Shown one piece after another: positions 18,001 to 21,000 of a stretch of 64,000 nt of DNA. Source of the stretch: an uncultured Gemmatimonadaceae bacterium (GTDB taxonomy: Bacteria; Gemmatimonadota; Gemmatimonadetes; Gemmatimonadales; Gemmatimonadaceae); contig CAWBOC010000009.1 of assembly GCA_963790305.1 (NCBI GenBank), positions 768,001 to 832,000 on the forward strand. Reading direction: 5' to 3'. The stretch's first letter is position 1. Each line of letters begins with the position of its first letter. The position numbers were made by a program.

Positions 18001-21000
18001 CTTCGTACTGATGTACGCGCACCTCGACGGCTACGCCGACGGCGTCAGCGATAACGGCCCGCTCCGTCGCGGTCAGGTGATCGGCTATGTCGGGACGACG
18101 GGGAATGCGCCACCGAACGTGCCGCACCTGCACTTCGCGATCGCCCGTTCATCGGACGTCTCGCGTTGGTGGGAGGGGACGCCGGTGGATCCGTTGCCGT
18201 TACTGCGGAGGTAGTCGAGGTGGTCCAGGCAGTCGAGGTGATCAACGTGAAGGCGCCTCGATCACGTCGACATCCTCGAAAACCTCGACAACCTTCGCTA
18301 TCGGGTGTTCCGGATCTCGCGAAGAATCTCGCGCGGCGAATACCCGGGGCAGAACCACTGGGTGGTCGTCGCGGCAGCAGAGATCGACAGGTGCCCGGTC
18401 CTCGGCAGCACCTGCATCGCGCCGACGGTGAGTCCCCAGAGTACGATGACGAGGGAGAGCGCGTGGCAGCGGGCCATGCGGGTGCGCCAGGTCCACTGCA
18501 CCGACCACAGGCCGCCGACCATCACGACTACCGAGGCTCCGAGGAACCAGAACAGTCCCGAGCCGCAGTCGCGCGCGTAAGGCCAGAAGTAGATGCCGAC
18601 GGCAACAGCGAGTGAGAGACCGATGCGGAGCATCGCGCCGTTGGTCAGCTCTTCGGGGGAGAGCGGGGTGGCGGCGAGCCCATTGGCGGAAATACGACCC
18701 GGCTTGCCTGTGGCGCCGTGCGTGTCGTACTCGCGCTCGATCTTCTTGAGCTCGGCCTTCCAGTTAATGATGTCTGTCACGGGTGGCTCCATAGGCGTAA
18801 CGACCCTGCACAGGTGAGACGGGGCAGCGGCGCGCAGGGCAACGCCCTTCTTGACGGCTCCTCTTCGGTCGACCGTATGGTCGTTTCCCGGCGACCCGAA
18901 CACGCGCCAAATTGCGGGGTATTTCGTGGACCTTTCACCTGACGAAACGTGACGACCGACCGAACGATTGTAGGAACCGCCATTCTCGCCGTGGGCCTCG
19001 TGCTGGCGGGATTGCTCGTGGGCGGCGGGTTCGCGAAGGGGCGCGACGCCGATCACTTCGTCACCGTGAAGGGAGTCTCCGAGCGCGAAGCACGAGCCGA
19101 CCTCGCGATCTGGCCGCTCGCCATCGTCGCCGCCGACAATGACCTGAGCCGCGCGCACGCGAGCCTGCTGCGCAGCGTGCGTGAGATCAAGACGTTCCTC
19201 GCCCGCAACCAGCTCGACACCACCGAGCTCACGCTCCAGCAGTTCGTCGTTTCCGACGCGCTCACGAACCAGTACGGCGGTGGGAACGTGACGACGCGAT
19301 TCGTGATCCGGCAGACGGTCGTCGTTCGCTCGACGCAGCCCGAACGCGTGGCGGCGGCAAGCCAGCGCGTGGGAGAGCTGGTGAGCGCAGGCGTCGTGCT
19401 CTCGTCAGGCGGCGAGTATGGGCCGGGTGGGCCGACCTACGTCTTCACCAAGCTCAACGACCTGAAGCCGCCGATGATCGCCGAGGCGACGGCGCGCGCC
19501 CGCGAGGCGGCCGAGCAGTTCGCTCGCGACGCGCGCAGCGAGCTTGGCGGCATTCGACGGGCGAACCAGGGGATCTTCGAGATCCTCCCCCGCGACCAGG
19601 CGCCGGGCATCTTCGAAGGGAACCAGATTCTGAAGACGGTGCGCGTGGTGTCGACGATCGAGTATCTGCTGGATTGAGGCGCTAGAGGCGCTAAAGGCGC
19701 TAAAGGCGCTAACCACCGCGCGGTAGCAGACTCTGTTGCAGGCGGTACAAAAGAAAGCCGGTTCGTCGGGCCGCGTCCGCTGCCGCCTCAATCGCCGTTT
19801 CAGGGAGGTACTCGAGCAGCGTGATCGCTTCGAGGTGCGTCTCCAGCTCGCGCAGTGACCCTGACGCGATAGAGAGATGGCGAAGGTAATCCCCACGCGT
19901 GGAACGCCCGAACCCTTCAGCGATGTTGGCCGGAACCGAGACGGCGGCGCGTCGCAGTTGTGCAGCCAATCCGTATCGTTCCGATCCGGAAGCTGGCGAG
20001 CGACTCGATAGACTTCCACGAGCAGCAGCATGGTGTTCCGCCACGTGACGAGGTCACGGTGCGTCTTGTGCGACGGGCGGGAGCCAGACTGCTGTTGAGC
20101 GATCACGCCGGAGTATGAGGCCCTTTCGCGGACGAGATAGCATCGTTCAATCTCCAGCCGTACCTCCTCGGCGCAGCGCCTCTAGCGCCTCTAGCGCCTC
20201 TAGCACCTCTAGCGCTTTCGACGTCAGGAAATTGTCGAGTCATCATCAACCGCGCGTCGGCGATCTTTGGCGCTGGACACTCTCGCTCCACACGCTTATC
20301 ACTTGAGAACTAGGCCTCCAGCCCCACGCATGCGCAAACGACTCATTCTCTCGCTCATCACGCTCGCGGTCGCCGCGCCGTCGATCGGTGCCGCGCAAAA
20401 CGGGAAAGGTCCGCCGCCCGTGCCCAAGCGCGACACCGTCGCGGTGGCACTCGTCTCCACGGATTCCGTGGCGGCAGGCCAGGTCGAGAGGGTCGTTCGC
20501 GGACGACATCGTGAAGTGCAGTTCTGCTTCGAGGAGAGCGGACTCAAGACCGATCCCGAGCTGTCAGGCACGTTCGCGATGGTGATTAGCCTCGATACGC
20601 TCGGAACCGTGTCGCGCGTCGATCCGTCGTGGCGCGAGTGGAGCGGGCCTGACGGCACCGCTGTCGAGGCGTGCGTGATGCAGCGCGCGCTCACGTGGAA
20701 GTTTCCCGCGTACCTCGCCGTGGCCACGCCGCGGCACGAGGTCACCTTTCAGTTCTCGCGATAGATGCCCTGCCTCTTCGCGGTCTTCGCGCTCGTCACA
20801 CCGCGGCTGCTGATACTTTTCCTCTACTTCTTCACCACCTGGTTCCACGGCATCTTCGCTTCGCTCCTGTTCCCGATCCTCGGTTTCGTCTTTCTTCCGA
20901 CGACGCTCCTCTGGTATTCGGCGGTGCACCACTGGTTTGGCGGACAGTGGAGTCTCTGGCCGATCGTTGGCCTCGTCGTCGCTCTCATGATCGACATCTC

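Follow-up and report, generated by a model that had tools for sequence, protein, structure and literature searches.

A decaying IVP/S23p cassette between inverted tandem-repeat arms as the candidate master copy of a gene-less hairpin family in a Gemmatimonadaceae genome

Since the 1990s the IVP/S23p family has reportedly been known from the intervening sequences (IVS) of rRNA, and we know of no function assigned to it and of no catalytic activity, nor do we know of any partner protein for the tandem heptamers of Xanthomonas and Nostoc. The STRR heptamers of cyanobacteria are intergenic tandem heptamers as well, and the foldback transposons of eukaryotes, which are far larger and are mobilised by known transposases, have long inverted arms of short tandem repeats and are mostly gene-less with few coding loops. 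Several bacterial systems come close to the locus analyzed here. The ORF-bearing IVS of 23S rRNA, as in Leptospira and in helix 45 of Coxiella burnetii, are described in passages of PMC4990558 as sporadically distributed stem-loops of approximately 430 nt with a stem of approximately 30 bp, carrying in the loop a decay-prone ORF for a PF05635/TIGR02436 protein; the Coxiella IVS has 428-444 nt, a 28-bp stem and an S23p ORF and is processed by RNase III. In REPIN-RAYT systems, according to parts of PMC3116915, PMC3337134 and PMC5581495, each repeat family usually comes with just one gene, which lies between inverted copies of the repeat and is vertically kept under selection, along with tens to hundreds of intergenic gene-less palindromes. 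Xanthomonas and Nostoc have G-rich intergenic tandem heptamers, and passages of PMC4692102 report 70-75 convergent heptamer pairs in Xanthomonas with the G-rich strands facing each other, which is the polarity found here. These repeats are treated there as quadruplex-forming, whereas many of the units described below are incapable of forming quadruplexes, and that paper names no gene that goes with them: in its text the terms “S23”, “intervening” and “four-helix” have 0 occurrences each. The Avd protein of diversity-generating retroelements has a homologous pentameric four-helix-bundle fold (PMC10053308). No paper connecting tandem-repeat arms with PF05635 or GxxExxY genes was found in the literature searched; new here are a whole-genome census, the concordance between master genes and repeat families, and the turnover at fixed sites.

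The window, which is the whole stretch of 64,000 nt that was analyzed, lies on contig C9 of an uncultured soil bacterium of the Gemmatimonadaceae (contig position 768,001 is window position 1). In this window an ORF of the SIMPL/DUF541 family (18949..19677, plus strand; PF04402, E 1.8e-15) ends with a TGA stop codon that directly abuts the first repeat unit of a purine-rich array. This left arm (19677..19712) is made of 4.0 copies of a 9-nt unit, GGCGCTAGA/GGCGCTAAA, and was reported by TRF as AGGCGCTAA x4.0 with 96% matches. The pyrimidine-rich right arm (20175..20215), which is the reverse complement of the left one, contains 4.6 copies of AGCGCCTCT with 93% matches (TRF). Between the arms, which are 36-41 nt long, lies a loop of 462 nt (19713..20174), the cassette interior with an IVP pseudogene on the minus strand, which was aligned with its orthologues in two same-genus genomes, G004 and G008. 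The cassette is antisense to both flanking genes, the downstream one being a plus-strand ORF (20267..20764) with a likely start at ATG 20331 (MRKRLILSL...), for which a Pfam search gave no match. On the strand of the IVP gene the arms can pair over 35 nt with 32 Watson-Crick and 3 G-U pairs, and the RNA fold of the locus is predicted to contain a single uninterrupted 36-bp stem (MFE -266.2 kcal/mol, z -5.16), with an equally good result in 0 of 100 shuffles.

The minus strand of the loop matches PF05635 (E 3.4e-23; 82.3 bits, cut-off 33.8) and TIGR02436 (E 1.4e-23; 83.2 bits, cut-off 24), placing the gene in this family by profile; the PF05635 match covers profile positions 26-103 of 106, the coverage being limited because of a frameshift. 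With the intact G004 orthologue as reference, a single nucleotide is missing near 19984, outside any homopolymer, and the two halves of the gene are in different frames. The N-terminal piece (19985..20106, minus strand) was found by alignment with G004 in the frame of ORF 19405-20106 and begins at GTG 20106, while the C-terminal piece (19709..19984, minus strand), identified by both profiles in ORF 19709-20044, uses a second frame and ends with a stop codon at 19709-19711 that overlaps the last bases of the left arm. TRF, the profile match and the comparison with G004 thereby bear out the genome-wide survey's note, which had described a frameshifted IVP gene between mirror-image arrays at C9:787727-788067.

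The same note regarded such loci as built like the IVS of 23S rRNA, and with inverted repeats that would form a 36-bp stem around a 462-nt loop with an S23p ORF, the dimensions of the window locus agree well with those of the Coxiella IVS. The differences are nevertheless clear. A 23S IVS sits in an rRNA helix (9, 25 or 45), whereas the window locus is intergenic, between the SIMPL gene and the downstream gene; its arms are short-unit tandem arrays with hundreds of gene-less copies in unit-specific families; and RNase III, the enzyme that excises an IVS, was not found in this order. PF14622 gave no match in any of the 31 genomes of the order that were searched (26 with a completeness of 90% or more) but did so in 8 of 14 controls, and PF00636 had no match in this genome, in agreement with the survey's statement that the genome lacks RNase III. 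The locus resembles a REPIN-RAYT system in that an inverted dispersed repeat flanks the gene and 43 gene-less hairpins have the window unit, but its gene is not a Y1/HUH transposase, its arms are tandem arrays of 7-10-nt units and not REP palindromes, and orthologous sites switch unit family. A RAYT reading was rejected because the gene is an IVP gene and no Y1 transposase (PF01797), or transposase of any kind, was found in the genome. A reading as Avd of a diversity-generating retroelement was likewise rejected: the window protein scored 27.8 bits with the Avd model, below the cut-off of 80, no reverse transcriptase is adjacent, and PF00078 was not found in a search of the genome.

A profile search and an array search covered the whole genome. 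Six PF05635 loci were above the cut-off, with one further match at chance level (E 0.82), and all six are bracketed by inverted tandem arrays with six different units, just as the survey had claimed for every IVP gene. None of them lies in either 23S rRNA gene (C9:615825-618869 and C6:138470-141485), both of which are without such arrays, again as claimed. The view that each locus has its own unit holds as far as the six different units are concerned, but the units are not private, as they are common to families of gene-less hairpins. One statement had to be reversed: genes of the PDDEXK_3 (GxxExxY) type were thought to lie near arrays but not clearly inside them, and three of the four are clearly inside such hairpins. 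Two of these four loci are in half/half hairpins, one is built as arm-loop-complementary arm, gene and again complementary arm, and one is at a contig edge. Such unpaired half/half pairs with a long loop number only a handful genome-wide, and the majority contain an IVP or a PDDEXK_3 gene. In total the genome has about ten gene-bearing copies, six with IVP and four with a GxxExxY nuclease-fold gene, and the unit type follows the protein family: IVP goes with heptamers that have an AG core, GxxExxY with 8-10-mers of the CRCAGAGG or CGCGGATT type.

The gene-less hairpins were counted as inverted array pairs with a loop of at most 150 nt, giving 326 pairs at 322 distinct loci. Within one mismatch, 299 of the 322 have a unit from the arms of one of the ten genes, and the families so defined comprise 92, 67, 43, 40, 14, 13, 12, 9, 5 and 4 hairpins, the family of 43 being that of the window locus. 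If the ten genes were placed randomly in hairpins in proportion to family size, they would fall into ten different families with P = 0.0003. Two members of the window family are found in the window itself, one at 29514..29628 (AGAGGCGCT x4.0 and AGCGCCTCT x3.8 around a 45-nt loop) and one at 50166-50251. Dispersed copies have variant units in a common internal order. When the loops of empty hairpins were compared with the ten cassette interiors (blastn-short, E <= 1e-3), 0 of 192 contained recognisable cassette interior, which rules out that most empty hairpins are simple deletion derivatives. The loops of most families are unrelated to one another. In the largest family, GAATGCG, just four loops clustered together; along with the 0 of 192, this means that copy-and-paste of whole elements fails to explain most copies.

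Pattern matches, with overlapping registers counted, were compared across nine same-genus genomes. GGGCCAA x3 gave 135-240 matches in the five genomes that have an IVP gene flanked by GGGCCAA and 0-3 in four without it, and AGGGTCCTC x3 gave 149-261 matches in four genomes with the gene and 0-13 in five without it. In the five of the nine genomes searched for it, GAGGCGCTA x3 gave 181 matches in G000, 175 in G004, 39 in G005, 2 in G002 and 0 in G003, while GAGGTGCTC x3, searched in the same five, had 258 matches in G002, where an intact IVP gene at the site orthologous to the IVP4 locus here is flanked by exactly GAGGTGCTC. Of the nine genomes, a unit family reaches high numbers only in those that also have an IVP gene with the unit in question. 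GGGGTCA is partly contrary to this: 44-132 matches persist in three genomes in which no heptamer master was found, two of these genomes being incomplete and some of the matches being cross-matches. Since the same-genus genomes are related and not independent, the concordance overstates the number of events. Genes and families are gained and lost between species within the genus.

The site behind the SIMPL stop codon could be compared in the eight of the nine genomes, our own included, that have a SIMPL orthologue; G003 gave just a 40-nt match. The cassette is intact in G004, frameshifted in the window genome, and truncated in G008, where the arrays have grown to x10. At the same site G005 has an empty hairpin of the window unit type, G001 and G006 have a hairpin of another family, and in G002 and G007 there is no hairpin and the downstream flanking gene directly follows the SIMPL gene. 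Array copy number thus shifts fast, from x4 to x10 at one orthologous site. Conversely, five sites that are empty here are filled in a relative: two have a cassette of the same family (C9:15654-15753 and C7:15373-15490), the former being the site at which the survey had reported an IVP gene of a relative in place of the empty hairpin, and at three the family is another. Of ten hairpin sites of the window, eight are occupied in G002, five of these by another unit; the sites at 29514..29628 and 50166-50251 both have a GAGGTGCTC hairpin there. The unit change at kept sites looks more like replacement or conversion than like classical transposition. No target-site duplication was seen at the filled/empty junctions that were read, where the sites differ by replaced sequence between genomes that are approximately 85-90% identical. 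Taken with the 299 of 322 units and the concordance in nine genomes, the empty site in G005 and the two same-unit filled/empty sites support the proposal that the empty hairpins represent the IVP element without its gene.

The survey's observation of the same build around IVP genes of other Gemmatimonadales was confirmed at 20 of 29 fetched loci by a strict criterion, and within the genus 43 of 52 IVP loci have the hairpin build by a looser one that allows a unit mismatch of up to 2. Loci from many phyla were collected with a six-sequence alignment as query, and 60 of 71 rank above the 95th percentile obtained with 127 shifted controls. The hairpin build is therefore IVP-family-wide across phyla and no trait special to Gemmatimonadales. 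PDDEXK_3 loci in relatives were above controls in 17 of 23 cases. Mapping unit classes on the protein tree was uninformative, with 56 singletons among 70 and 59 changes compared with 62-66 in the first shuffles, and because of the many singletons it was replaced by a Mantel-type test, in which more similar proteins had more similar units (none of 1000 permutations reached so extreme a value). All 17 pairs with at least 70% protein identity differ by at most one base in the unit.

With dN/dS values of 0.04-0.19, the intact IVP genes are functional and under purifying selection. In the IVP2 cassette of four genomes the arms are the best-conserved part, with identical columns at 33/33 and 27/30 positions compared to 55/92 in the left spacer and 40/105 at third codon positions. 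Arm mismatches at 32 loci had no G-U strand bias (26 sense, 29 antisense), thus giving no sign of selection on one RNA strand; selection of the stem on the RNA strand of the gene would have led to an excess of G-U pairs on that strand, which is absent.

We hold with moderate confidence that these elements form an IVS-like and REPIN/RAYT-like system in which IVP replaces the transposase, and that the window locus represents the “master” copy, now in decay, of a palindromic repeat element. Such an element consists of two inverted tandem-array arms that enclose the gene of a small four-helix-bundle protein (IVP/S23p), and the same kind of element in the tip of a 23S rRNA helix would be the ORF-bearing IVS. 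Each gene-bearing copy matches a single family of hairpins without a gene, located immediately after stop codons; the protein would recognize the phased units of its own arms and be needed to spread or maintain its own family, with new copies preferentially landing in, or overwriting, existing hairpin sites. The data show the anatomy, the pairing of single genes with single families, the joint occurrence of the two across genomes, the states and decay at orthologous sites, the purifying selection on intact genes and the strong conservation of the arms; binding of the protein to the arms, any catalytic step, and action at the DNA or the RNA level are what we infer. A ring-shaped RNA-binding IVP could, following a TRAP-like logic, instead serve host regulation by gripping the purine-rich 5' arm during transcription and deciding whether the hairpin forms, with consequences for termination, read-through or the stability of 3' ends; every paralogue would act on the genes that have its unit, and its own arms would provide autoregulation. 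The placement of the hairpins suits this, as the median distance from stop codon to hairpin start is 5 nt and hairpins are over-represented between convergent genes (99 of 250 intergenic hairpins, compared with 644 of 3403 spaces between genes, both by crude gene calls), and 320 of the 322 hairpins have a purine-rich 5' arm whichever strand is read, a polarity that a protein catching the first-made arm would require. About five phased units is the commonest count (4.1-5.0 copies in 72 of 150 heptamer arms), the AG core is conserved in 64-72 of 75 units, and the family is pentameric, the structures 2gsc and 2rld having five chains each and a passage of PMC4990558 giving “homopentamer ... toroidal”. 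A host function is just as compatible with strong purifying selection, and arm conservation also speaks for it. We nevertheless find host regulation rather unlikely, given the turnover of genes and families between species of the genus, and given that copies decay, that the family is also found inside rRNA insertions and cas operons (according to published passages), that a near-identical cassette design recurs across phyla, that there is no G-U strand bias, and that no terminator-like T tract is present at the window locus, where 0 terminator-like sites (GC-rich hairpin with T tract) were found in 19400-20500.

The gene could also be a mere passenger, the hairpins being a REP-like class in their own right, enlarged by slippage and palindrome correction, with IVP and GxxExxY as selfish genes that home into loops, as into rRNA helix tips, and inherit the arms. 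This would account for the unrelated loops of most families, for sites that persist while their content and copy number (x4 to x10) change, for a GNAT gene that likewise lies between half arrays (C2:163365-163862), and for published passages in which IVP ORFs share rRNA insertion sites with homing-endonuclease genes in CPR bacteria. Random landing would hardly put ten genes in ten families (P = 0.0003), however, and would leave it unexplained that families are near zero without the gene (0-3 against 135-240 and 0-13 against 149-261), that gene and unit co-vary across phyla, and that IVP and GxxExxY go with different unit types, all of which makes this explanation distinctly doubtful. We regard it as very improbable that the classical IVS mechanism simply operates outside rRNA, with the arms only forming a dsRNA stem that is cut by a dsRNA nuclease, thereby releasing or destroying the enclosed transcript, and with empty hairpins as processing sites. 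The dimensions equal those of the RNase III-processed Coxiella IVS in the passages of PMC4990558 and a perfect 36-bp stem is predicted at the window locus, but none of the 31 genomes searched in the order yielded RNase III, PF00636 had no match in this genome, the cassette is antisense to both flanking genes, and the gene strand has no G-U bias.

Returning to the master-copy reading, an extension of it that we consider unlikely is that a pentameric IVP ring reads five phased repeats, one unit per subunit, with a conserved R..S...N..EG face contacting the AG core and variable residues reading the bases that differ between units, in a paralogue-specific “code”; the ring would mark its own family and drive a homing-like overwrite of existing hairpin sites. 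This would explain one gene per family, the purine-first polarity, the unit change at fixed sites, and the rRNA IVS as a special case. The IVP ring would then be a naturally occurring binder of single-stranded nucleic acid that is sequence-specific and can be re-programmed; modular reading of the repeats, should it occur, would be of practical interest too. The genome in any case ties the IVP family quantitatively to tandem heptamer repeats, with nearly all 322 hairpins in families that have exactly one protein-coding copy. Two old puzzles thereby become one testable system with a specific protein, a five-unit site and predicted cognate binding. The genome also suggests that the rRNA IVS belong to a far wider class of elements and mark just one of its landing places.

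Some minor observations on the hairpins remain. Telomerase-like repeat addition at breaks was considered for the arm polarity, but it is speculation for which no polymerase candidate was found. Among the public sequencing runs listed, none of RNA carried the locus, and the best DNA run matched 0.22 of its words. Contigs from four soil runs mostly cover both arrays. Their “joints” from 19710/19711 to 20174 contain 15-23 other letters and the shorter side is just 23-34 nt; these joints therefore belong to other gene-less hairpins of the window family and do not reflect excision of the window cassette, and no conclusion was drawn from them. A hammerhead idea for loops that contain CTGATGAG was dropped, since the word belongs to a small palindrome and Rfam had no match. 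Rfam gave 0 matches at gathering thresholds in the whole window, and the conserved three-hairpin loops are therefore not any described RNA family. Two conserved loop types form clusters of 32 and 23 loops. Besides the two of its own unit family, the window has nine gene-less hairpins of other families, at 12747-12847, 15705-15805, 38956-39078, 52751-52865, 55441-55565, 56494-56620, 59532-59630, 61000-61145 and 63548-63639.

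The stop codon of a SIMPL-family gene (window 18949-19677, PF04402) marks the beginning of the element. Its TGA is the start of a left array of the 9-nt unit AGGCGCTAA (window 19677-19712, 4.0 copies, 96% matches), and the reverse complement of this array is found on the right as AGCGCCTCT (20175-20215, 4.6 copies, 93% matches), followed by a gap of 52-115 nt to the next gene. The 462-nt loop between these arms carries, on the minus strand, a gene of the 23S rRNA IVP / S23p four-helix-bundle family (IVP; PF05635 / TIGR02436, E 3.4e-23 in a profile search), the match being limited to PF05635 profile positions 26-103 and the N-terminal part lying in a different frame. 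Alignment with two orthologous cassettes (IVP gene between inverted tandem arrays) of same-genus genomes placed a 1-nt deletion near 19984, outside homopolymers, relative to the G004 copy, whose gene is intact; the G008 copy has several deletions and the 3' end of its gene is gone. As gene-strand RNA the arms are predicted to fold into a single 36-bp stem (MFE -266.2 kcal/mol, z -5.16). No terminator-like T tract was found at this locus, and Rfam gave no match in the window.

The site 3' of the SIMPL stop codon was compared in the eight same-genus genomes possessing the gene, this genome (G000) included. It holds an intact cassette in G004, the frameshifted one in G000, a truncated one with arrays expanded to ten copies in G008, an empty (gene-less) hairpin of the window's unit type with a 10-nt loop in G005 and a GGGCCAA-family hairpin in G001 and G006, and is without a hairpin in G002 and G007. 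It is precisely at the hairpin site (window 19677) that gene order is disrupted, with three different genes downstream of SIMPL among the eight genomes. Elsewhere, IVP cassettes of relatives stand opposite empty hairpins of the same family in G000 (C9:15654-15753 and C7:15373-15490), the former being an example from the genome-wide survey's note, which had set a relative's IVP gene against a hairpin that we find to be of the same unit family. At C5:347903-348006, C7:251645-251728 and C10:59299-59596 the hairpin in G000 is of another family, the last being a gene-less element of a GxxExxY-type family. Ten window hairpins had flanks alignable in G002; eight of these sites are occupied there, five by a different unit.

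The same architecture is found at every gene of the family in G000 (13 contigs, 4.31 Mb, 66% G+C). Six PF05635 loci scored above cut-off and all six are enclosed by inverted tandem arrays, each with its own unit (GGGGAGT, GGGGTCA, GTCAGAN, GAGGTCGTC, GGCGCTAGA and GGAATGC); none lies in either of the two 23S rRNA genes, so that the survey's description of these genes as hairpin-borne and outside rRNA genes holds. Its reservation that PDDEXK_3 (GxxExxY) genes lie beside such arrays, not clearly inside them, can be dropped for three of the four genes, all four of which share the design of the IVP loci: two are in half/half hairpins, i.e. long-loop pairs of otherwise unpaired arrays (units CCGCAGATGG and CGCGGATTC), one has the layout [arm-loop-arm']-gene-[arm'] (unit CACAGAGG), and the fourth, truncated by a contig end, adjoins a CGCAGAGGA hairpin. 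Across the nine same-genus genomes, 43 of 52 IVP loci are flanked by inverted arrays that agree in period and whose units differ by at most two mismatches. Other long-loop pairs in G000 are few: half/half hairpins at C7:189542-189910 (298-nt loop) and C9:44008-44227 (151-nt loop), without notable Pfam or NCBIfam matches, which could be remnants or carriers of a small gene, two weak, GC-rich pairs, and the unpaired inverted arrays TCACCTCGA (3.8 copies) and AGGTGCTCG (3.3 copies) around a GNAT acetyltransferase gene (C2:163365-163862, PF00583, E 2.9e-12). This ordinary-looking gene is the sole one found in such a long-loop hairpin that belongs to neither family.

For the census of gene-less hairpins, TRF arrays were paired when their periods were equal and their units reverse complements within one mismatch. 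This gave 326 pairs with loops of at most 150 nt, corresponding to 322 distinct loci, 299 of which have a unit within one mismatch of an arm unit found at one or other of the ten genes. These 299 fall into gene-linked families of 92, 67, 43 (the window's family), 40, 14, 13, 12, 9, 5 and 4 hairpins, and for ten genes to fall in ten different families has P = 0.0003 under random landing weighted by family size. Purines predominate in the 5' arm, whichever strand is read, at 320 of the 322 loci (G > C in 304), a polarity that is not produced by palindromy alone. Judged from crude gene calls, the hairpin separates convergent genes at 99 loci, co-directional genes at 126 and divergent genes at 25, with a median of 5 nt to the adjacent stop codon; a further 72 lie within called ORFs that may be over-called. 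Copies of the GGGGTCA family share the order of their variant units. Loops recur in two types (clusters of 32 and 23), only four loops of the largest family, GAATGCG, falling in one cluster, and none of 192 loops matched a cassette interior. At 32 gene-bearing loci the arms form 979 Watson-Crick, 26 sense G-U, 29 antisense G-U and 42 other pairs, with no strand bias of mismatches.

Among same-genus genomes the abundance of a unit family, counted as pattern hits including overlapping registers, tracks the presence of its gene. Three copies of GGGCCAA gave 135-240 hits in five genomes with such a gene versus 0-3 in four without, and AGGGTCCTC x3 gave 149-261 versus 0-13. In the five of nine genomes searched, GAGGCGCTA x3 had 181 hits in G000, 175 in G004, 39 in G005, 2 in G002 and 0 in G003, and GAGGTGCTC x3 had 258 in G002, where the intact orthologue of the truncated IVP4 locus of G000 has exactly the GAGGTGCTC unit in its arms. 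GGGGTCA x3 is less clean (231-512 versus 0-132), its counts being affected by cross-hits to GGGGCCA arrays and by two incomplete genomes. Because the compared genomes are kin, the independent gene-family events are few. Intact genes are under purifying selection (dN/dS 0.04-0.19), and in four genomes the arms are the most conserved part of the cassette at the IVP2 locus (33/33 and 27/30 identical columns, versus 55/92 in the left spacer and 40/105 at third codon positions).

The association extends beyond the order. A cross-phylum sample of 80 IVP loci included Proteobacteria, Bacteroidota, Planctomycetota, Acidobacteriota, Clostridia, a cyanobacterium, a Chloroflexi member and an archaeon. 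Full flanks were available for 71 of these loci, and at 60 of them the strongest flank-to-flank inverted repeat scored above the 95th percentile of shifted controls (n = 127, maximum score 14). Inverted arrays of equal period flank 89 of 114 IVP loci (median 4.4 copies, median loop 423 nt), 75 of them heptamers, and copy numbers of 4.1-5.0 occur in 72 of 150 heptamer arms. An AG core is common to the units (A in 64 and G in 72 of 75), which have an information content of 4.56 bits against 3.54 +/- 0.08 in 200 shuffles. Protein identity co-varies with unit similarity (0 of 1000 permutations as extreme), and in all 17 protein pairs of at least 70% identity the units differ by at most one base. 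Among 23 PDDEXK_3 loci in relatives, 17 scored above their controls; the units there belong to the CRCAGAGG/CACGAAGG type (locus L160 of the unpublished genome G015 excluded).

We give about an even chance to the reading that the element is IVS-like and REPIN/RAYT-like, with IVP (or GxxExxY) as the family-specific protein, and that the window copy is a decaying master, i.e. gene-bearing copy, of the GGCGCTAGA family. That each repeat family should have a single gene follows the logic of REPIN-RAYT systems; neither a Y1 transposase nor a reverse transcriptase was found in G000. Simple cut- or copy-and-paste is disfavoured by the unrelated loops and by the replacement of units at fixed sites; these observations point toward overwriting of existing hairpins, by which new copies would arise. 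That the gene is instead a passenger of the hairpins is quite unlikely, as this fails on the one-to-one match of genes and families and on the near-absence of families in genomes without the gene. A regulatory, TRAP-like role accounts better for the purine-first polarity and for the location of hairpins behind stop codons, and worse for turnover, decay and cross-phylum spread, and we consider it unlikely, if less so.

Excision of the RNase III type is described for the Coxiella IVS (428-444 nt, 28-bp stem; PMC4990558), and here is highly improbable, as it would have to proceed without its enzyme. RNase III was not found in G000, as the survey had stated, and its domain PF14622 turned up in none of the 31 Gemmatimonadales genomes searched (G000 and 30 relatives, among them the unpublished G015; 26 at least 90% complete), while 8 of 14 control genomes matched; an order without RNase III would, if so, be notable by itself. 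Of solved structures the nearest are 2gsc (XCC0516) and 2rld, both with five chains, and the Xanthomonas protein is described as a toroidal homopentamer (PMC4990558). IVP ORFs are known in CPR-bacterial rRNA insertions and cas loci. Tandem GGGAATC heptamers in 70-75 convergent pairs are reported from Xanthomonas without mention of an associated gene (PMC4692102), and our literature search found no published link between the IVP or GxxExxY gene families and the repeats. New here are the full within-genome census with its one-gene-one-family match, the gene-family concordance in sister genomes, the series of allelic states at a single site, the unit change at fixed sites, the polarity count and the arm conservation.

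Some arms and loops show further structure. At the IVP1 locus the unit shifts along the left arm (C7:167306-167372) from four outer GGCGAGT to about five GGGGAGT; the right arm has the inner type only and pairs with a short array further downstream as a small second hairpin. At IVP2 a palindromic word occurs as a 19-nt direct repeat (TGCTAGATATCTAGCAGGC x1.9, C5:70460-70496) immediately beyond the left arm; it is kept in four genomes and perhaps serves the neighbouring gene as an operator. GGGGTCA-family hairpins (window 61000-61145, C1:154367, C10:17529, C10:280773 and others) share a conserved, roughly 75-nt loop that folds as three small hairpins (GGAAAGG ... CTCATC.GATGAG ... CCTTTCC), and a similarly designed loop occurs in a GGGCCAA-armed hairpin of G006. 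The CGCAGAGGA-family hairpins look like layered arms of different units, lying within a T-run/A-run pair and an outer (CAACGG)n/(GCCGTT)n array pair (C5:203833, C5:230526, C5:773234 and others in G000).
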